From Myxococcota bacterium (GTDB taxonomy: Bacteria > Myxococcota_A > UBA9160 > SZUA-336): a stretch of DNA of 64,000 nt. Position numbers and translations under genes: made by a program. Every line of letters begins with the position of its first letter. Position 1 is the first letter of the stretch. Under the pieces are notes generated by a model. It ran no database searches. It worked only from the letters and a program-made list of their open reading frames with translations, and was not told the DNA's origin. Below, one piece after another: positions 46,402 to 53,870 of this stretch. The stretch covers positions 5,370 through 69,369 of the forward strand of contig DATKAO010000141.1 of assembly GCA_035498015.1 (NCBI GenBank), written 5' to 3'.

Positions 46402-46500
46402 GCGCGAAGCAAACCGGAAATCCGCCGTCCTGTCGACCCCTTCGGCTTGACTCGCGCGCGGCTTCCTGGCCTGCTCTCGGAGAACTCGAGGAGGCACCCG

Positions 46501-48183
46501 ATGGCGGAGCTCGATCTCGCGATTCGCGGCGGAACGATCGTCGACGGCACGGGGGCGCCGGCTCGCCGGGGCGACGTGGGGATCCGAGCCGGGCGGATCG
46601 CCGAGCTCGGCACGCTCTCGGGCCGCGCTGCGCGCGAGCTCGACGCCAGCGGCTGCGTGGTCGCGCCCGGCTTCGTCGACATCCACACGCACTACGACGC
46701 CCAGGTCTTCTGGGACCGCATGCTCACGATCTCGCCCTGGCACGGAGTGACTTCCGTGGTGATGGGCAACTGCGGCTTCGGCGTGGCGCCGACCCGGCCC
46801 GCGCACCGCGAGCTGATCATGCGCACGCTCGAGAACGTGGAGGGCATGTCGCTCGAGGCGCTGCGCGCGGGCATCGGGCCCGACTGGCCGTTCGAGACCT
46901 TCCCGCAGTATCTCGACGCGCTCGAGGCGCGCGGCACGGCGATCAACGTGGGGGCGCTCGTGGGTCACACGCCCGTGCGGCTGTACGTGATGGGCGAGGA
47001 GGCGACCGAGCGCGAGGCGACCGAGGACGAGATCGCGCAGATGGAGCGCATCGTGGCCGAAGCCGTGCGCGCCGGCGCGGTGGGCTTCGCGACCAGCAAG
47101 TCGGCCACGCACGTGGGCTACGCGGGCCGGCCGGTGCCGAGCCGCGCGGCCTCGCTCGCGGAGATCGAGAGACTCGCCTCGACGCTCGGCGCGCAGGGCC
47201 GCGGCATCGTGCAGGCCACGATCGGCCGCGGCTTCTTCACCGCCGAGCTCGCGGAGCTGGCGCGCAAGACCGGTCGTCCGGTGTCGTGGACGGCGCTGCT
47301 GGCGGGCGCGCTCGGTCCCGACGGACACCGGAAAGTGTTGGAGGACCACGAGAGGCTCCAGCGCCAGGGCGTGCCGGTCTACCCGCAGGTGGCGTGTCGG
47401 CCGCTCAACTTCGAGTTCCAGTGGAAGGCGCCGTTCCCGTACGAGAGCATGCAGATCTTCCAGCCGGTGTCTCGCGCCGACCACGCGGGCAAGAAGAAGA
47501 TCTACGCCGACCCGGAGTTCCGCGCCGCGTTCCGCGAGCGCGGCAGCAAGGGCGGGATCGCCGGCCGCTGGGAAGACACCGTGGTCTCGAGCTATGCGCC
47601 CGACCCGAGTCTCGAGGAGCGCAACGTGGCGCAGCTGGCGGCCGAGCGCGGCGTGCACCCGGTCGACCTGGTGCTCGACATGGGTCTCGAGACCAACCTC
47701 GAGGCGCGCTTCCGCATCGCCGTCATGAACACCGACGAAGGCGCGGTGCGCGAGCTGCTCGCGCACCCGTCGGTGGTGCTCGGCCTGTCCGACGCGGGCG
47801 CCCACGCGAGTCAGCTGTGCGACGGCTGCTTCTCGACGCACCTGCTCGCGCACTGGGTGCGCGAGCAGGGCGCGCTGTCCATGGAGCAGGGCGTGCGGCT
47901 GCTCAGCTCGCGCTCGGCCGAGGTCTTCGGCATCACCGACCGCGGCCGGCTCGCGCCGGGCCTCGCCGGCGACGTGGCCGTGTTCGACCCCGACACCGTC
48001 GGGTGTAGCCCGCTGCGCCGCGTCTACGATCTGCCCGCGGGTCAGGACCGGCTGGTGGCCGATGCCGAAGGCATGCGCGCGGTGGTCGTGAACGGCGTGC
48101 TGCTGCGCGAGAACGGGCGCGACGCGGTGGATCCGGCCGGAAAGCTGCCGGGGCGCGTGCTGCGCGGCGGCGTCGCCGTCTGA
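46501..48183 (+). CDS. N-acyl-D-amino-acid deacylase (D-aminoacylase)-like amidohydrolase
   Basis: AGGAGG lies 6 nt upstream of ATG. GFVDIHTHYD metal-binding motif and D-aminoacylase-like sequence throughout. Confidence 0.65.
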   Translation: MAELDLAIRGGTIVDGTGAPARRGDVGIRAGRIAELGTLSGRAARELDASGCVVAPGFVDIHTHYDAQVFWDRMLTISPWHGVTSVVMGNCGFGVAPTRPAHRELIMRTLENVEGMSLEALRAGIGPDWPFETFPQYLDALEARGTAINVGALVGHTPVRLYVMGEEATEREATEDEIAQMERIVAEAVRAGAVGFATSKSATHVGYAGRPVPSRAASLAEIERLASTLGAQGRGIVQATIGRGFFTAELAELARKTGRPVSWTALLAGALGPDGHRKVLEDHERLQRQGVPVYPQVACRPLNFEFQWKAPFPYESMQIFQPVSRADHAGKKKIYADPEFRAAFRERGSKGGIAGRWEDTVVSSYAPDPSLEERNVAQLAAERGVHPVDLVLDMGLETNLEARFRIAVMNTDEGAVRELLAHPSVVLGLSDAGAHASQLCDGCFSTHLLAHWVREQGALSMEQGVRLLSSRSAEVFGITDRGRLAPGLAGDVAVFDPDTVGCSPLRRVYDLPAGQDRLVADAEGMRAVVVNGVLLRENGRDAVDPAGKLPGRVLRGGVAV

Positions 48184-49031
48184 CGGCCCTGTCGCTCGTC
48201 GACGGCCGCACGCTCGCGTGGGCGGAGTTCGGCGAGCCCACCGGGCGCCCGCTCCTCTTCTTCCACGGCACGCCGGGCTCACGCCTCGGCGCCAGCGCCC
48301 TCGACGACGTGGCACGGACACGCGGCGTGCGTGTCATTGCGCCGGACCGGCCGGGTTGCGGCAAATCGCAGCCGAAGCCCGGTCGCGCGCTGGTCGACTG
48401 GCCGGACGACGTGCGCGCGCTCGCCGACTCACTCGCCATCGATCGTTTCTCGATCGCGGGCATCTCTGGCGGCGGTCCGTATGCCGCGGTGTGTGCCTGG
48501 GCTCTTCCCGAGCGGGTGAGCGGCGCGGCGATCCTCTCGGGGATCGGACCCACCGATCACCCGGGAGCCACCCGCGACATGCTGTGGACGAATCGACTCT
48601 CGCTCTGGCTCGCGCGGCACGCGCCCCCGCTCGCGCGGGCGCTCCTCGGACTGACGCGCAGCCAGCTGCGCAACCCCGAGCGCGCGCTGACGCGCATGGC
48701 GAGCACGCTTCCCGCGCCCGATCGCGCGATCCTCGCGCAGCCGCTCCACCGCGACCGCCTGATCGCGGAGTTCCGAGAGGCCATCTCGTCCACTACCGAG
48801 GGCGCGATCGCCGACTTGCGGATCTTCGCTTCGCCTTGGGGCTTCGCGCCGGAGGAGATCCGAGTCCCTGTCCACATGTGGCACGGCGAGCTCGATCGCA
48901 ACAGCCCGATCGCGCTCGCGCGCCGGCTGGCGGCGGCGATTCCCGGCTGCCGGACGACGTTCGCTCCGGACGGCGGTCACCTGTTCCCACTGCTGCACCT
49001 GGACGAGGTGCTGAAGTCACTCGGGCTCTAG
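48180..49031 (+). CDS. alpha/beta hydrolase (proline-iminopeptidase-like, HGxPGS), probably initiating at CTG
   Basis: The conserved N-terminus LTALSLVDGRTLAWAEFGEPTGRPLLFFHGTPGSRL lies in frame upstream of the first canonical start (GTG 48309). The only candidate initiator is CTG 48180 in a CTGA overlap with the upstream stop. Nucleophile GISGGG. Confidence 0.5.
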   Translation: MTALSLVDGRTLAWAEFGEPTGRPLLFFHGTPGSRLGASALDDVARTRGVRVIAPDRPGCGKSQPKPGRALVDWPDDVRALADSLAIDRFSIAGISGGGPYAAVCAWALPERVSGAAILSGIGPTDHPGATRDMLWTNRLSLWLARHAPPLARALLGLTRSQLRNPERALTRMASTLPAPDRAILAQPLHRDRLIAEFREAISSTTEGAIADLRIFASPWGFAPEEIRVPVHMWHGELDRNSPIALARRLAAAIPGCRTTFAPDGGHLFPLLHLDEVLKSLGL

Positions 49032-49939
49032 CTCTTCACGAGGTCCCGGCAGAAGGAGCGGATCGCCCCGTTCAGCACGTCGGCGGCCTCCCACTGCAGG
49101 AAGTGACCCGCGTCGCGCACCAGGAACGGGCCGACGTGGTCGGGGAAGACGGCTGCGGCCATGCGGTCGAACTCCGGGTAGATCACGTGGTCCGAAGTGC
49201 CGAACAGGATCAGCGCGTGCGTCGGGTTGGGACCCAGCATCGGCGGCTCGCTGCGCTTCTCGGGCTTGAACACCGACTCGTAGCCGCCGAAGCCGGAGCG
49301 CAGCTTCGCGGCGTCGGCGAAGGGCTCGGTCATGAAGTCGACGGCCTCGCGCGCGAAGTGACCCGGGTGCGCCCAGAAGCGCGAGCCGTAGAAGCTCGCG
49401 ATGTAGCGCCGGCGCTCTTCGGGCGTGCCGAGCTCGCTCGCCAGCGCGTCGGCGTCGGTGCCCTGGCGCAGGAAGTAGTCGGCCGCTTCGGCGGCCGGGC
49501 GCGAGCGCAAGCCCGCCATCTTGTCCTTCAGATAGGGCAGGGGCGAGTTGAAGATCACCAGCCGCTCGACCCGCTCGGGGAAACGCAGCGAGAAGTCCTG
49601 GATCACCGCGCCGCCCAGGTCGCCGCCCACCAGCACCACCCGCCGCACGCCCAGGGCGTCGAGCAGGGCGGCCAGGTCGCGGCTGTGACTCGGCGTGTCG
49701 GCGAAGCCGTCGGGCGCGACGTCGCTCTCGCCGAAGCCCCGCAGGTCGGGCGCGATCACGCGGAAGCCCGCGGCCGCGAGCGGCGCGACGTTGCGCCACC
49801 AGATGCGCTTGGTCTCGGGCCAGCCGTGCACGAGCAGGAGCGGGAAGCCCTGGCCCTCGTCGACGGTCACCTGCCCGAAGCCGCGCGGCGACTCGCGACG
49901 AATCCGGAACCGTGCCGGATCGAGCTCGCCCTCGCTCAA
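49028..49939 (-). CDS. alpha/beta hydrolase (epoxide hydrolase / haloalkane dehalogenase-like)
   Basis: LLLVHGWPE, GGDLGG elbow. TTG start overlaps the bolA stop (TTGA). Its stop shares a CTAG with the convergent hydrolase. Confidence 0.6.
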   Translation of the reverse strand: MSEGELDPARFRIRRESPRGFGQVTVDEGQGFPLLLVHGWPETKRIWWRNVAPLAAAGFRVIAPDLRGFGESDVAPDGFADTPSHSRDLAALLDALGVRRVVLVGGDLGGAVIQDFSLRFPERVERLVIFNSPLPYLKDKMAGLRSRPAAEAADYFLRQGTDADALASELGTPEERRRYIASFYGSRFWAHPGHFAREAVDFMTEPFADAAKLRSGFGGYESVFKPEKRSEPPMLGPNPTHALILFGTSDHVIYPEFDRMAAAVFPDHVGPFLVRDAGHFLQWEAADVLNGAIRSFCRDLVKS

Positions 49940-50193
49940 GGCGCGCGCGTCTCGAGCACGTCGATCGCGTGCACCGGCGCGCCCTCGCCCTTCATCAGGT
50001 GCGCGATCGCGCCCAGCACGAGCCTCTGCTTGGCCAGCGTGTTCTTGCCCGCGAACGCGGCCGAGCTGACGCGGATCTCGAAGTGACCGCCGCTGCCGCG
50101 CACGTCGAGCGAGTCACAAAGCAGCGCCGCCTCGATGGCGGCGCGGATCTGGCCGATCACCTCGGAAGGCGGCGGGTGGATCTGCAGGGCCAA
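49936..50193 (-). CDS. BolA-family protein
   Basis: SGGHFEIRVVS...HRLV...IHAL BolA signature. Start codon uncertain (TTG 50193). Confidence 0.6.
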   Translation of the reverse strand: MALQIHPPPSEVIGQIRAAIEAALLCDSLDVRGSGGHFEIRVSSAAFAGKNTLAKQRLVLGAIAHLMKGEGAPVHAIDVLETRAP

Positions 50194-50201
50194 GGCGGGG
50201 G

Positions 50202-51134
50202 TCAGTAGCGGGGCACCGACGGGTCGATCTCACGCGACCACGCGTCGATCCCGCCGGCCAGGTTGTGGACGTTCGAGAAGCCCTGCGCCGCGAAGTGCTC
50301 GGCCGCCGCCTGGCTGCGTCCGCCGTGGTGGCAGTGGAACACGATGCGCGTGTCGCGCGGCAGCTTCTCGATCTCGGCCGCGACCTGCGGGTCGACCAGC
50401 GTCGCGCCCGCGATGCACGCCTTGCGCTGCTCTTCGGGCGTGCGCACGTCGTAGAGCCGCAGCGGCGCGCCGGAGTCGAGCAGTGCCTTCAGCTCGCGCA
50501 CGGAGAGCTGATTCACTGGGGCGGCCTTGGGGGCGTTGGGGTTGTCGACCGCCAGCGCCTTGCGGCCGCCGCCCGAGTCGACCGCGTCGATCGTGAGCCC
50601 GTCGGCGCGCTGCGCCGAGTCGTGGTCGAAGAGCAGGGTGAGTCCGTTGCTCTCGGCCGCGACCTCGTGACCCGCGCGCGGCCCGAGCGAGAGCGAGTGC
50701 TTGAAGCCGGCGTCGATCGCCACGTGCAGGTCCCCCGGCTGGCGCGCCTGCGCCTCGCGCAGGAGCTGCGCCGCGGCATCGGTCACGGTGACACGGGGCG
50801 GTGTCACCTGCGCGAGCTCGAGCCCGAGCGCCTGGTGCAGCTCGCCGCTCGCGTACATCTCCTTCACGATGTCGCAGCCGCCCTGGAACTCGCCCCCGAT
50901 GTAGAGCTGGGGGATGGTCGGCCAGTTCGAGAACTCCTTGATGCCCTCGCGCACCTCGCGATCCGAAAGCACGTCGAAGCTGCCGTAGCCGGGCAGCAGC
51001 CGGTTCAGGATCGAGACGACCTGTGCGGAGAAGCCGCACTGGGGCGCGTCCGGGTTGCCCTTCATGAACAGGACCACCCGGTCCGAGGCCACGATCGACT
51101 GGATGCGCTCGCGGAGCTGGGGAGACAGCGACAT
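50202..51134 (-). CDS. three-domain fusion protein: Grx4-type monothiol glutaredoxin (CGFS), Cys-less IscA/HesB-like domain, and rhodanese
   Basis: VVLFMKGNPDAPQCGFS (CGFS active site). Middle domain ITVTDAAA...LHVAIDAGF...LTIDAV...NPNA matches an A-type-carrier fold but lacks the three Cys. C-terminal rhodanese with CHHGGRS. AGGAAGGG RBS. Confidence 0.7.
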   Translation of the reverse strand: MSLSPQLRERIQSIVASDRVVLFMKGNPDAPQCGFSAQVVSILNRLLPGYGSFDVLSDREVREGIKEFSNWPTIPQLYIGGEFQGGCDIVKEMYASGELHQALGLELAQVTPPRVTVTDAAAQLLREAQARQPGDLHVAIDAGFKHSLSLGPRAGHEVAAESNGLTLLFDHDSAQRADGLTIDAVDSGGGRKALAVDNPNAPKAAPVNQLSVRELKALLDSGAPLRLYDVRTPEEQRKACIAGATLVDPQVAAEIEKLPRDTRIVFHCHHGGRSQAAAEHFAAQGFSNVHNLAGGIDAWSREIDPSVPRY

Positions 51135-51210
51135 CGGGAATTCCCTTCCTTGCCGGCCCGTTCGATGCCGGCCCGCGCAGTCTAATTTCGCTAACGTGCG
51201 CCGGCCAGCC

Positions 51211-51285
51211 GACCCCATCGTCTAGCCTGGCCCAGGACGTCGGCCTTTCACGCCGAGAACGCGGGTTCGAATCCCGCTGGGGTCA
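51211..51285 (+). tRNA. tRNA-Glu (anticodon TTC)
   Basis: Cloverleaf folds by eye: acceptor GACCCCA/TGGGGTC, anticodon stem TCGGC/GCCGA with loop CTTTCAC, T-arm GCGGG-TTCGAAT-CCCGC. Discriminator A, and CCA is encoded (51286-51288). Confidence 0.85.
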
Positions 51286-51288
51286 CCA

Positions 51289-51338
51289 CTTCTCCCGCCC
51301 CGGCGCCCTCGCCGGGGTCCGGGGCCAGAGGTGAGAAG
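51289..51338 (+). terminator. hairpin structure immediately 3' of tRNA-Glu (probable terminator)
   Basis: CTTCTCCCGCCCCGGCGCCCTCGCCGGGG...GAGAAG contains nested inverted repeats (CCCCGGCG/CGCCGGGG; CTTCTC/GAGAAG). Confidence 0.35.
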
Positions 51339-51434
51339 TTTCTCAGCCCCTGAGTCGATCCGCCCCCCAGGGTCACTCATGGCCGGCAATGCTTCGCTCG
51401 TGTCCGTGATCGCCGCCGCAGTCACTGCGAGCCC

Positions 51435-51851
51435 GTGTGCCGGCTCGGGCGGCGGGAGGATCTCGCCGACTCGGCGGACCTGCGGGTCGAGGTGCCCGCG
51501 GGCTGGAGCGTGACTGCGAAGCCCGTGGACGCGCGCGGCGTGCACACCTACGAGCTCCGGCCCTCCGACGGCACCAGGGAGATCGTGCTCGTGAGCGCGT
51601 TCGACGCGCACCACCAGCGCGCGCGGTCGTGGGTGGAAGGCAGCAGCCGCTCGGCGCCGACGCAATCGGTCGAGGGCACGCTCGCCGTCGAGTCCATGTG
51701 TCCGGGCAAGGACGGCGGCTACTACCGCGCGCCCGAGCCCGATGGCTACCGCTACATGACCCAGGTCGCGCTCGTGCACCTGAATCACGCGGTGACTCTG
51801 GCGTGCGACGGCGCGCCGCCGGCAGCCTCGATCAGAGTCAGCATCCGCTAG
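51435..51851 (+). CDS. hypothetical protein (138 aa); possibly the frameshifted body of a secreted protein
   Basis: Non-repetitive composition. An ATG at 51379 in the adjacent frame encodes a signal-peptide-like MAGNASLVSVIAAAVTASPCAGSGGG that runs into this ORF across a G-rich run (GGCGGCGGGAGG). Its stop shares a CTAG with the convergent GST. Confidence 0.35.
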   Translation: MCRLGRREDLADSADLRVEVPAGWSVTAKPVDARGVHTYELRPSDGTREIVLVSAFDAHHQRARSWVEGSSRSAPTQSVEGTLAVESMCPGKDGGYYRAPEPDGYRYMTQVALVHLNHAVTLACDGAPPAASIRVSIR

Positions 51852-52498
51852 GCGCGCATGCCTCCTGCCTTCGCCACCGGGTGGAGGCTGGCCTCGGCGC
51901 TCGGCCGCTTGCCGATGCGCTCGAACAGCGCGTTCACGTTCTTGAAGGCCGGATTGCGGGCCTGACCCACGCCCGCACCGAAGTCGAGCGCGCAGTACAA
52001 GCAGATGTCGGCCAGCGTGAAGCGCTTGCCGCATACCCACTCCTTGCCCGCGAGCAGGCCGTCGAGCTTCTGCAGGTAGTACTGCGACATGTTCTTCAGC
52101 CCCTGCGCGGCCTCGGGAATCGTGAACAAGCGGTCCTTGAACATTCCCAGGCCCTCGGCGAAGCGGAAGCCGTTGGCGAGCGGCTCGGTGATGCCGAACT
52201 CGATGCGCCGGATCCACATACGGGTCTCCGCGCGCTCTTCCGGCGTGGCGCCAATCAGCGCCGGCTTCGGGTTCTTCTCCTCGAGGTACTCGCAGATCGT
52301 GACCGTCTCGCCGAGCACGAAGCCGTTGTCGAGCTCGAGCGCGGGCATCTGGCCGGCCGGGTTCTTGTCGGTGTAGGGCGGCCGGCGGTTCGCACCGCCC
52401 ATGATGTCCACCTGCTCCGTCGGGAGCTGCAGGTTCTTCTCCAGCAGGAACATGCGCACCAGACGCGGGTTCGGGCCGAGCGAGTCGTAGAACTTCAA
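51848..52498 (-). CDS. glutathione S-transferase
   Basis: GGAGA lies upstream of TTG 52498, giving (M)KFYDSLGPNPRLVRMFLLEKNL..., a GST N-terminal domain. The upstream part of ORF 51848..52678 is not protein-like. Confidence 0.7.
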   Translation of the reverse strand: MKFYDSLGPNPRLVRMFLLEKNLQLPTEQVDIMGGANRRPPYTDKNPAGQMPALELDNGFVLGETVTICEYLEEKNPKPALIGATPEERAETRMWIRRIEFGITEPLANGFRFAEGLGMFKDRLFTIPEAAQGLKNMSQYYLQKLDGLLAGKEWVCGKRFTLADICLYCALDFGAGVGQARNPAFKNVNALFERIGKRPSAEASLHPVAKAGGMRA

Positions 52499-52562
52499 GG
52501 TCGTCTCCTTTGAATGGGCGCAGCGCGGCCCGCGGCTATGATACGCGCTCGGGGGTGGAATT

Positions 52563-53870
52563 TTGGACCTGGGCGCCGCGCTTCCCGTCTGGACCGTCTT
52601 GCCGTTCGCCGGCCTCTTGCTCGCCATCGCGCTCTTGCCGCTGTTCGCCGGGCACTTCTGGGAGCAGAACCGCAACAAGGCGCTGGTGGCCGCGCTGTTC
52701 TCGCTGCCCGTGGTGCTCGAGCTCGCGAGCTTCGGTCACCCGGGCCTGCACCAGCTGGTCGAGAAGGGGCAGGAGTATCTCTCGTTCATCCTGCTCCTGC
52801 TCGCGCTGTTCGTGATCACCGGCGGCATCGTGGTGCGCGGGTCACTCAGCGGCACACCGCTGGTGAATACCGGGATTTTCGGGCTGGGCGCCGTGCTCGC
52901 GAACGTGATCGGCACGACCGGCGCGTCGGTGCTCTTGATCCGCCCCGTCCTGCGCGCCAACGCGCCGCGCGAGCGCAAGGTGCACATCGTGGTGTTCTTC
53001 ATCTTCATCGTGTCCAACTGCGGCGGGCTGCTCACTCCGCTGGGTGACCCGCCGCTGTTTCTCGGCTTCCTGAAGGGCGTGCCGTTCGAGTGGACGTTCT
53101 CGCTCTGGAAGGAGTGGCTGCTCGTGAACGGCGCGCTGCTCGTGCTGTTCAACGTGTGGGACCAGCGCGTGCTCGACCAGGAGGAGCTGGAGCGCCCCGG
53201 CTCCCAGCTCGAAGAGGTCATGCACCACGCGCCGCTGCGCATCGAGGGCCTGCGCAACGCCGCGTTTCTCGCCGGCGTGGTGGCCTTGATCTTCTACGCC
53301 GGCCGCGCCGAGCTGCCCTACGGCGTGCCCCAGGCCGCCATGGCGCTGCTCGCCGTCACCGCCTATCTCGTGACTCCCGAGAGACTCCGGCGCGACAACG
53401 GCTTTACCTGGGGACCGATCGTCGAGGTGGCGGTGCTGTTCGCAGGCATCTTCGTGACCATGGCGCCGGCGCTGCTGCTCCTGAACACGCATGCCGCGAG
53501 CGTGGGCCTGCGCGAGCCCTGGCAGTTCTACTGGGCTTCGGGCCTGCTCTCGAGCTTCCTCGACAACGCGCCCACCTACCTCACGTTCTCGGCCGCGGCC
53601 GCGGGGCTGCACGGGCTCTCGCTCGAGGGCCGCTATCTCGCGGAGCTGCTCGCGCAGGGTGACTCGGGCGCGAGGCTCGTGGCGGCGATCTCCTGCGGCT
53701 CGGTCATGATGGGCGCGAACTCGTACATCGGGAACGGGCCCAACTTCATGGTGAAGGCGATCGCCGAGGAGGCCGGCGTGCGCATGCCGTCGTTCTTCGG
53801 CTACATGGCATACTCGGTGGGGATCCTGATCCCGCTGTTCGTCGTGATCACGTTCATGTTCATGCGCTGA
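52563..53870 (+). CDS. ArsB/NhaD-superfamily ion transporter (sodium:proton antiporter-like)
   Basis: About 12 TM helices. Repeated GxxxG-rich segments (FGLGAVLANVIGTTGASVLLIRP...). GGGGGTGG lies upstream of TTG 52563. Confidence 0.55.
   Translation: MDLGAALPVWTVLPFAGLLLAIALLPLFAGHFWEQNRNKALVAALFSLPVVLELASFGHPGLHQLVEKGQEYLSFILLLLALFVITGGIVVRGSLSGTPLVNTGIFGLGAVLANVIGTTGASVLLIRPVLRANAPRERKVHIVVFFIFIVSNCGGLLTPLGDPPLFLGFLKGVPFEWTFSLWKEWLLVNGALLVLFNVWDQRVLDQEELERPGSQLEEVMHHAPLRIEGLRNAAFLAGVVALIFYAGRAELPYGVPQAAMALLAVTAYLVTPERLRRDNGFTWGPIVEVAVLFAGIFVTMAPALLLLNTHAASVGLREPWQFYWASGLLSSFLDNAPTYLTFSAAAAGLHGLSLEGRYLAELLAQGDSGARLVAAISCGSVMMGANSYIGNGPNFMVKAIAEEAGVRMPSFFGYMAYSVGILIPLFVVITFMFMR

Follow-up and report, generated by a model that had tools for sequence, protein, structure and literature searches.

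The monothiol glutaredoxins, the BolA proteins, the A-type carriers and NfuA together make up a late network by which Fe-S (iron-sulfur) clusters are delivered, and there is still debate over how these proteins recognise each other as well as their clients. Among them, GrxD is known to bind a [2Fe-2S] cluster with glutathione as a homodimer, and it also copurifies with BolA, with which it forms a cluster-bridged heterodimer (PMC8593673). It passes clusters to ferredoxin and cooperates with NfuA, whose degenerate A-type domain binds no cluster and targets NfuA to apo-proteins (PMC8593673). Under iron limitation, ErpA receives its clusters via GrxD, which is required (PMC11327457). It has also been reported that Fe-S reconstitution in vitro can use sulfur donated by a rhodanese, and that RhdA takes sulfur from IscS (PMC8614886). 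Fusions of such domains are on record as well. In 2009, Alves, Vilaprinyo, Sorribas and Herrero (BMC Evol Biol 9:66; PMC2679010) described, among the multidomain glutaredoxins, a bacterial CGFS "frataxin-rhodanese-GRX" triple fusion, and treated the frataxin-rhodanese part as a supra-domain linked to Fe-S metabolism. The gene analysed here lies in a stretch of 64,000 nucleotides from a Myxococcota bacterium (GenBank assembly GCA_035498015.1, contig DATKAO010000141.1, positions 5,370 to 69,369 of the forward strand), which is called the window throughout. It encodes a single polypeptide in which a CGFS glutaredoxin (Grx) domain, a cysteine-less IscA-like domain and a rhodanese (Rhd) domain follow one another, and a bolA gene stands directly after it.

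This three-domain fusion is genuine and under selection, and the window gene is an ordinary member of a widespread, generically annotated family. By a slight balance of probability, the protein is a multidomain Fe-S cluster carrier of the GrxD/Grx4 type working with BolA, with the middle domain used for docking and the rhodanese for sulfur relay. The gene, its parts and its closest surroundings are as follows, in window coordinates.

50202..51134, minus strand: Grx4-ATC*-rhodanese fusion gene, 310 amino acids plus stop codon (list of open reading frames (ORFs), sequence, Pfam/NCBIfam matches)
50826..51134, minus strand: class II (CGFS) monothiol glutaredoxin domain, residues 1-103 (TIGR00365, GrxS14 alignment, Foldseek)
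51027..51038, minus strand: CGFS active-site motif with Cys33, the presumed cluster ligand (sequence)
50526..50807, minus strand: Cys-less A-type-carrier-fold domain (ATC*), residues 110-203 (Pfam and family-profile comparisons)
50205..50516, minus strand: single-domain rhodanese of the sulfurtransferase type, residues 207-310, with a conserved C-terminal SVPRY (PF00581)
50313..50333, minus strand: rhodanese active-site loop CHHGGRS with Cys268, a six-residue C-X4-R loop (sequence)
49936..50193, minus strand: bolA/ibaG-like gene, 85 amino acids, TTG start, beginning 8 nt after the stop codon of the fusion gene (PF01722)
51143..51151, minus strand: Shine-Dalgarno-like AAGGAAGGG, about 8 nt 5' of the ATG of the fusion gene (sequence)
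51211..51288, plus strand: tRNA-Glu (anticodon TTC), 76 nt upstream of the fusion gene and divergent from it

Judged by its sequence, the N-terminal domain has every hallmark of the class II CGFS glutaredoxins. It scores 132.5 bits against TIGR00365, the NCBIfam equivalog of the Grx4 family (cutoff 117.1), over residues 9-104, and the Pfam Glutaredoxin match of the fusion protein, at 65 bits, is well above threshold. Arabidopsis GrxS14 is 51% identical to it (E 1.5e-32), with FMKG, CGFS, WPTIPQ and GGCDI all aligned. The active-site motif PQCGFS was located, with the codon of C33 at 51038..51036, and the other motifs of the glutathione/cluster site, i.e. the Lys of FMKG, WPT[IF]PQ and GG[C]D, are invariant or nearly so across the fusion family. 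The structural model agrees: in Foldseek, the modelled domain reaches a TM score of 0.92 to GrxS14, and it superposes with GrxS14, human GLRX3/5 and E. coli Grx4 at 0.81-0.94. Glutaredoxins of the CGFS class II are poor thiol-disulfide oxidoreductases and good cluster binders.

The C-terminal domain is a rhodanese (PF00581, 63.8 bits against a threshold of 22.2), and the codon of its C268 is found at 50333..50331. In NCBIfam, it is best matched by GlpE and by the rhodanese domains at the C-termini of MoeB and MoeZ, the alignment with these two running to their last residue, while 6mxv and GlpE 1gmx (GlpE E 6e-8) are its matches in the Protein Data Bank (PDB). The loop bears on another reading of the protein, as an Acr2/Cdc25-type arsenate reductase or phosphatase with a built-in glutaredoxin for its reductant. 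The Acr2-type arsenate reductases do have a rhodanese fold and use glutaredoxin and glutathione (GSH), and a CitMHS_2 permease is encoded 1.4 kb away. The loop, however, is a C-X4-R of six residues and not the seven-residue HC-X5-R of Cdc25/Acr2, the glutaredoxin is of the CGFS class and not a dithiol/CPYC reductant, no ars genes are seen among the neighbours, and the nearest relatives are GlpE and the rhodanese domain of MoeZ. An arsenate reductase or phosphatase is therefore very improbable.

The middle domain is less evident. On the window sequence, PF01521 (Fe-S_biosyn) gives 19 bits with the whole protein and 22.3 bits with the isolated domain, the gathering score being 26.3, and from this single sequence alone the IscA-like assignment would stay below threshold. 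An alignment of 29 diverse middle domains of the fusion family, here called A1, gave a clearer result. All 29 match PF01521 (best E 9.5e-11), and the A1 profile matches solved chains of the IscA/HesB family, namely HI1723 (1.2e-8), Aq_1857, E. coli IscA and T. elongatus IscA; it also matches DsrR, weakly. In view of these matches, the domain is homologous to the A-type carriers. The motifs RVTVTDAAA...IDAGF...NPNAP are present in it. A frataxin/CyaY identity was considered for the same domain and ruled out, as no frataxin similarity appeared in any search.

The cluster ligands of the A-type carriers are nevertheless missing from it. The only Cys residues of the fusion protein are 33, 87, 240 and 268, so that none falls in residues 104-206; among 121 homologues, C33, C87 and C268 are the only conserved Cys columns, none of them inside the middle domain, which has no Cys at all in 55 of the 61 genome-derived members. 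In the HMMER alignments, 4-6 residues are deleted where the true carriers have their first ligand loop (GGGCSG), and the domain ends in NPNAP just ahead of the C-terminal CxC position of the carriers, the CxC tail being replaced. Since the three cluster-ligating Cys (C-Xn-C-X-C) are absent, the domain has the A-type carrier fold (that of IscA/SufA/ErpA) without being a functional A-type carrier. The name ATC* follows the term "degenerated A-type domain" as used for NfuA.

A first-pass annotation of the stretch had proposed this order of domains, with a middle domain devoid of all its cluster-ligating cysteines and a rhodanese with its active-site Cys intact. Its coordinates and reading frame are exact, and the motifs it quoted (PQCGFS, CHHGGRS and that of the middle domain) are all present. 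The glutaredoxin and rhodanese assignments are borne out by the scores above, as is the loss of cysteines; the IscA-like domain, for which a profile check had been suggested, becomes solid with the family matches, and the Cys of CHHGGRS is kept in all 121 homologues.

The gene is read from an ATG at 51134..51132 to a TGA at 50204..50202. In the mechanical ORF list, the frame is lengthened to an ATG at 51218, but an ORF from there would overlap the tRNA-Glu gene, which makes 51134 the credible start; the position of AAGGAAGGG supports 51134 over 51218 as well. The homologues, of 303-320 amino acids, share the same MSL... N-terminus with the window protein. An AlphaFold2 model of the full-length protein is confident throughout (mean pLDDT 94.9, pTM 0.69). 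A scan for promoters and terminators over 48900..51400 found nothing promoter-like and a single terminator-like hairpin, at chance level. This GC-rich hairpin with its T-rich stretch lies within the bolA coding region (50124..50144, minus strand) and is probably not meaningful, as one such site was seen against 0.8 expected by chance. Elsewhere in the window, no paralogue of the Grx, ATC* or rhodanese domain was found.

Among 5.8 billion proteins searched, the clusters of full-length homologues number more than 120, at 57-92% identity and from many independent assemblies. The labelled ones are mostly Myxococcota, with Thermoanaerobaculia and Terriglobales also represented, and the source databases call these homologues only "Grx4 family monothiol glutaredoxin". 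When one genome per species was scanned, about 60 loci turned up that match over the full length or nearly so. In the Lysobacterales (Xanthomonadales), these are found in Xanthomonas, Stenotrophomonas, Lysobacter, Luteimonas, Thermomonas, Arenimonas, Rhodanobacter, Dyella, Luteibacter and Fulvimonas, and in the Myxococcota in Sorangium cellulosum, Labilithrix, Byssovorax, Sandaracinus and Polyangiaceae. Marinicella, metagenome-assembled genomes (MAGs) of Acidobacteriota and several further MAGs carry the fusion too, and it is present in finished genomes, those of Xanthomonas and Sorangium among them; the complete chromosomes with it include CP094243.1, NZ_CP012673.1 and NZ_CP183975.1. An assembly artefact or a frameshift joining separate genes, the danger that the first-pass annotation itself had named, is thus ruled out: the single ORF recurs at 40-92% identity in this many clusters and species genomes, with complete chromosomes included and the independent assemblies running into the hundreds, and the model is confident. 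The same annotation called the fusion unusual, which is overstated for a large conserved family of Lysobacterales, Myxococcota and Acidobacteriota MAGs that was very probably noted already in 2009.

The two active cysteines are conserved together with the architecture. Cys33, like Cys268, is kept in 121/121 homologues; among the genome-derived members, CGFS is found in 61/61 translations, and the rhodanese Cys in a loop of the C-X4-[RS]-S type in 59/59 of those having the domain. Both residues thus appear, from this conservation, to be under purifying selection.

The gene after the fusion matches PF01722 at 38.3 bits (threshold 25.7). Of the solved structures, that of XC975 from Xanthomonas campestris (1xs3, E 8e-7) is the nearest to it, BOLA1 and YrbA/IbaG come next, and the GGHF and VHAID histidines are retained in the alignment with these three. 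In the relatives P0004, P0083 and P0063 (89%, 60% and 62% identity), bolA is likewise found 2-8 nt downstream of the fusion, while their other neighbours differ. The adjacency had been pointed out from the window and holds at this locus, on the same strand with its 8 nt gap, but not as a universal trait of the family. Of 63 species-genome loci, 12 have a BolA-like ORF directly downstream, mostly those of Myxococcota and related MAGs, and none of the Lysobacterales loci has an adjacent bolA within 4 kb of the fusion. The Xanthomonas phaseoli locus (L013, 4001..4924) is one with the fusion and no adjacent bolA, though XC975 is itself a Xanthomonas campestris protein; in Xanthomonas genomes, the BolA partner is probably encoded elsewhere. 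Stand-alone grx4 genes from the same scan adjoin bolA as well, upstream in Alphaproteobacteria and downstream in Betaproteobacteria. The pairing of the fusion with bolA is therefore seen as common to Grx4 and BolA in general and retained in this lineage. An apparent four-domain Grx-ATC*-Rhd-BolA fusion in L019, L027 and L031 was rejected, as the long open frame differs from the grx frame and is an effect of high GC.

The conserved grx-bolA pairing could also be taken to mean that the protein senses iron or redox state together with BolA, like the Grx3/4-Fra2 signalling complex, in which case cluster occupancy would report the iron status, the rhodanese Cys would switch in response to redox state or persulfide, and a regulatory target would be bound by ATC*. 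Grx-BolA heterodimers are indeed known regulators in fungi, and cluster binding by E. coli GrxD responds to iron limitation (PMC8593673; PMC11327457). The protein, however, has no DNA-binding domain and no conserved regulator gene adjoins it; the partners of ATC* in other proteins, Nfu and SufT-like domains, are carriers or maturation factors and not regulators; and the Lysobacterales retain the fusion without an adjacent bolA. A sensor role is accordingly quite unlikely.

The partners of ATC* were found through its own profile. When A1 was searched against 1.84 billion representative proteins, it gave 724 matches with E no higher than 1e-3, of which 178 do not exceed 1e-10, and on this account ATC* is regarded as a discrete sub-family and not as generic IscA. 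For the best 150 of the 724 matches, the architectures were assigned with family-built domain hidden Markov models, and with Pfam on selected cases.

ATC*-Rhd: 46 proteins
ATC* without detected Grx or Rhd (fragments, proteins that stand alone, and cases with other domains fused on): 35 proteins
Grx-ATC*-Rhd: 34 proteins
Grx-ATC*: 31 proteins
ATC*-ATC-Nfu: P0126
Grx-ATC*-ATC-Nfu: P0183; also P0137, where just the C-terminal portion of Grx is present
ATC*-FeS_assembly_P (SufT-like): P0162 and P0174

Within these best 150, the partners of ATC* are all domains of Fe-S or sulfur trafficking. P0183 (L088, 201..1484) is a complete ORF of 427 amino acids. P0183, P0126, P0137, P0162 and P0174 sit on short contigs. 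Grx-ATC* proteins without a rhodanese, of 204-206 amino acids and with bolA directly after them, are encoded in Candidatus Multivorans and a Polyangiaceae MAG (L056, 4001..4606; L059, 4001..4612). P0172 (L087, 149..754) is a complete stand-alone ATC*-rhodanese gene of 201 amino acids; no Grx remnant lies upstream of it, and it is preceded by a promoter-like TTGACA/TAGAAT-type region and a GGAGG ribosome-binding site. The ATC*-Rhd cassette thus exists by itself, so that the fusion to Grx probably brought together two partners that already existed and interacted. Two proteins that looked like new architectures for their additional C-terminal residues, P0146 and P0191, were set aside as frameshifted gene calls.

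The cassette without Grx also fits a reading in which the rhodanese is the catalytic heart of a glutathione-linked sulfurtransferase of the TSTD1/RDL1 kind, moving sulfur from thiosulfate or a persulfide to GSH to give GSSH. The glutaredoxin would then only bind and present glutathione or resolve the persulfide, ATC* would be a spacer, and the protein would serve to detoxify persulfide or sulfide, or in signalling by them. Its rhodanese loop is of the sulfurtransferase type and invariant, GlpE, TSTD1 (6bev) and the rhodanese domains fused to persulfide dioxygenases are among the nearest relatives of solved structure, and a glutathione S-transferase gene is located upstream (51848..52678). Against this, the glutaredoxin is a canonical CGFS class II domain with the GrxS14 identity given above, the linkage to bolA and the Nfu and SufT-like partners of ATC* indicate Fe-S trafficking, and no sqr, pdo or sox genes were seen among the neighbours. 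A dedicated sulfurtransferase is thus held to be unlikely.

The Fe-S carrier reading is supported by the identities of the domains, the conserved C33 and C268, the bolA linkage and the partners of ATC*, all of which belong to Fe-S trafficking. According to this reading, the Grx domain would hold a [2Fe-2S] cluster together with glutathione, either as a homodimer or as a heterodimer with the neighbouring BolA, in the manner established for GrxD-BolA/IbaG of E. coli and for the eukaryotic counterparts. ATC*, presumably unable to bind a cluster, would serve for docking, as the degenerate A-type domain does in NfuA, and its partners may be client apo-proteins or else a true A-type carrier, for instance ErpA, to which GrxD gives its clusters in E. 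coli. The rhodanese would carry a persulfide on Cys268, which would feed the rebuilding or repair of the cluster at the carrier or would link the carrier to the glutathione/persulfide pool. A mechanism of this kind, in which sulfur is mobilised by the rhodanese, the cluster handed over by Grx/BolA and the IscA-like domain used as an adaptor, had been suggested from the window; it appears reasonable, by analogy and from the co-occurrence of the domains. What exactly the rhodanese does is far less certain than the carrier function.

Several points weigh against the carrier reading. In an hhalign comparison, ATC* aligns end-to-end with the N-terminal domain of E. coli NfuA (E 1.4e-4, probability 53%, with an NfuA sequence entered by hand), but this likeness is no stronger than that to ordinary IscA-family carriers; docking would thus be an analogy and not a matter of shared functional ancestry. 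What part rhodaneses play in Fe-S assembly in vivo is not well established, and the accepted source of sulfur is the cysteine desulfurases (PMC8614886). The low share of loci with an adjacent bolA, described above, counts on the same side, and none of the genes for Fe-S assembly (isc, suf, erpA or nfuA) was found as a conserved neighbour, bolA excepted. This covers the neighbourhoods of three relatives and an ORF clustering over the 63 loci, the latter swamped by spurious high-GC ORFs. The recurrent real neighbours, picked out by eye, are order-specific genes of GDSL-type hydrolase-like, DUF924-like and amidohydrolase-like proteins, none of them Fe-S related. Finally, a literature search found no experiment on any member of the fusion family.

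A bolder version of the carrier reading may be considered. ATC* could be a dedicated, so far unrecognised adaptor by which Grx, rhodanese, Nfu and SufT-like modules are plugged onto the same partner, for example by mimicking an ErpA/IscA protomer. The rhodanese persulfide and the Grx-BolA site would then form a self-contained unit for rebuilding or repairing [2Fe-2S] clusters, which would feed A-type carriers independently of the Isc/Suf scaffolds. This proposal is speculative and its odds are low.

The wider neighbourhood of the fusion gene holds the following genes.

49028..49939, minus strand: alpha/beta-hydrolase gene with a TTG start (PF00561, 105.8 bits)
48309..49031, plus strand: second alpha/beta hydrolase gene, downstream
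46450..48183, plus strand: gene of an Amidohydro_3 protein, downstream, syntenic with L081/L082
45376..46398, minus strand: ferrochelatase gene (hemH), downstream, syntenic with L081/L082
51848..52678, minus strand: glutathione S-transferase gene, upstream of the tRNA gene; such a gene is also near the fusion in L081/L082
52563..53870, plus strand: CitMHS_2 transporter gene (ion-transporter-superfamily permease)

The start of the first alpha/beta-hydrolase gene overlaps the stop of bolA as TTGA, and the identical 4-nt overlap is present in L081/L082 (89% identity). This arrangement suggests a three-gene operon of the fusion gene, bolA and the hydrolase gene. The hydrolase gene is probably co-transcribed and specific to this lineage; in its position, a DUF2255 gene is found in L083 and a ROK gene in L085, so that it probably stands outside the conserved unit. 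The longest ORF of the glutathione S-transferase gene (TTG at 52678) overlaps the start of the CitMHS_2 gene by about 116 nt, and its true start is therefore probably further in.

As regards the literature, the supplement of Alves et al. holds the Xanthomonas entries Q3BPF6 and Q5H3X7, without an architecture tag (PMC2679010). Their Grx domain and the 3' coding end (…GVAKY*) match those of the Xanthomonas member L013, from which it is inferred that the triple fusion of 2009 is very probably the present Grx-ATC*-Rhd family. The two descriptions differ in that the earlier one has the order frataxin-rhodanese-GRX, whereas the order here is Grx, ATC*, Rhd, and the third kind of domain is IscA-like. 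What is new here is the re-assignment of this middle domain from frataxin to IscA-like, the recurrence of ATC* with Grx, rhodanese, Nfu and SufT-like domains, and the stand-alone ATC*-Rhd cassette. A natural fusion of a glutaredoxin, a ligand-less A-type domain and a rhodanese, along with the Nfu and SufT-like fusions, is a genetic hint that these are functional partners, and it hints that a rhodanese may have a physiological part in Fe-S metabolism. As the gene is carried by cultivable and in some cases genetically tractable bacteria (Xanthomonas, Stenotrophomonas, Lysobacter and Sorangium), the question is directly testable.

Among solved structures, the model of the fusion protein found single-domain matches only, and in the Foldseek search of the PDB none spanned more than one of its domains (best query TM 0.33). 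E. coli GrxD (Grx4), yeast Grx5, human GLRX5 and plant GrxS14 share the CGFS site and 43-51% identity with the Grx domain of the window protein; they are single-domain proteins of about 110 amino acids, whereas the window protein has some 200 further residues in ATC* and the rhodanese. GlpE and the rhodanese domains of MoeB, MoeZ and Uba4, the last matched by Foldseek, have in common with the window rhodanese the fold and the six-residue catalytic loop, and the MoeB/MoeZ models of NCBIfam align to the very C-terminus of the window protein, including the terminal P-x-Y. Unlike MoeB, MoeZ and Uba4, the window protein has no adenylyltransferase domain, and the domains joined to its rhodanese are those of Fe-S trafficking; no ThiS/MoaD-like gene was seen among the called genes of the three relatives' neighbourhoods examined. 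DsrR of Allochromatium vinosum (PDB 2k4z) differs in being a stand-alone protein encoded in the dsr sulfur-oxidation operon, and no close sequence relationship to it was found.

By analogy, NfuA appears to be the nearest functional counterpart. In both proteins, a domain that carries a cluster, or in the window protein is predicted to, is fused to a domain of the A-type fold that has lost cluster ligands. The window protein, however, has no NifU/Nfu domain according to Pfam; its presumed cluster module is the glutaredoxin, ATC* lies C-terminal to this module, and a rhodanese is added. ATC* has also lost all three cysteines and the first Cys loop, and its likeness to the N-terminal domain of NfuA is weak. 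The two designs meet among the relatives of the window protein, which include Grx-ATC*-ATC-Nfu fusions such as P0183.

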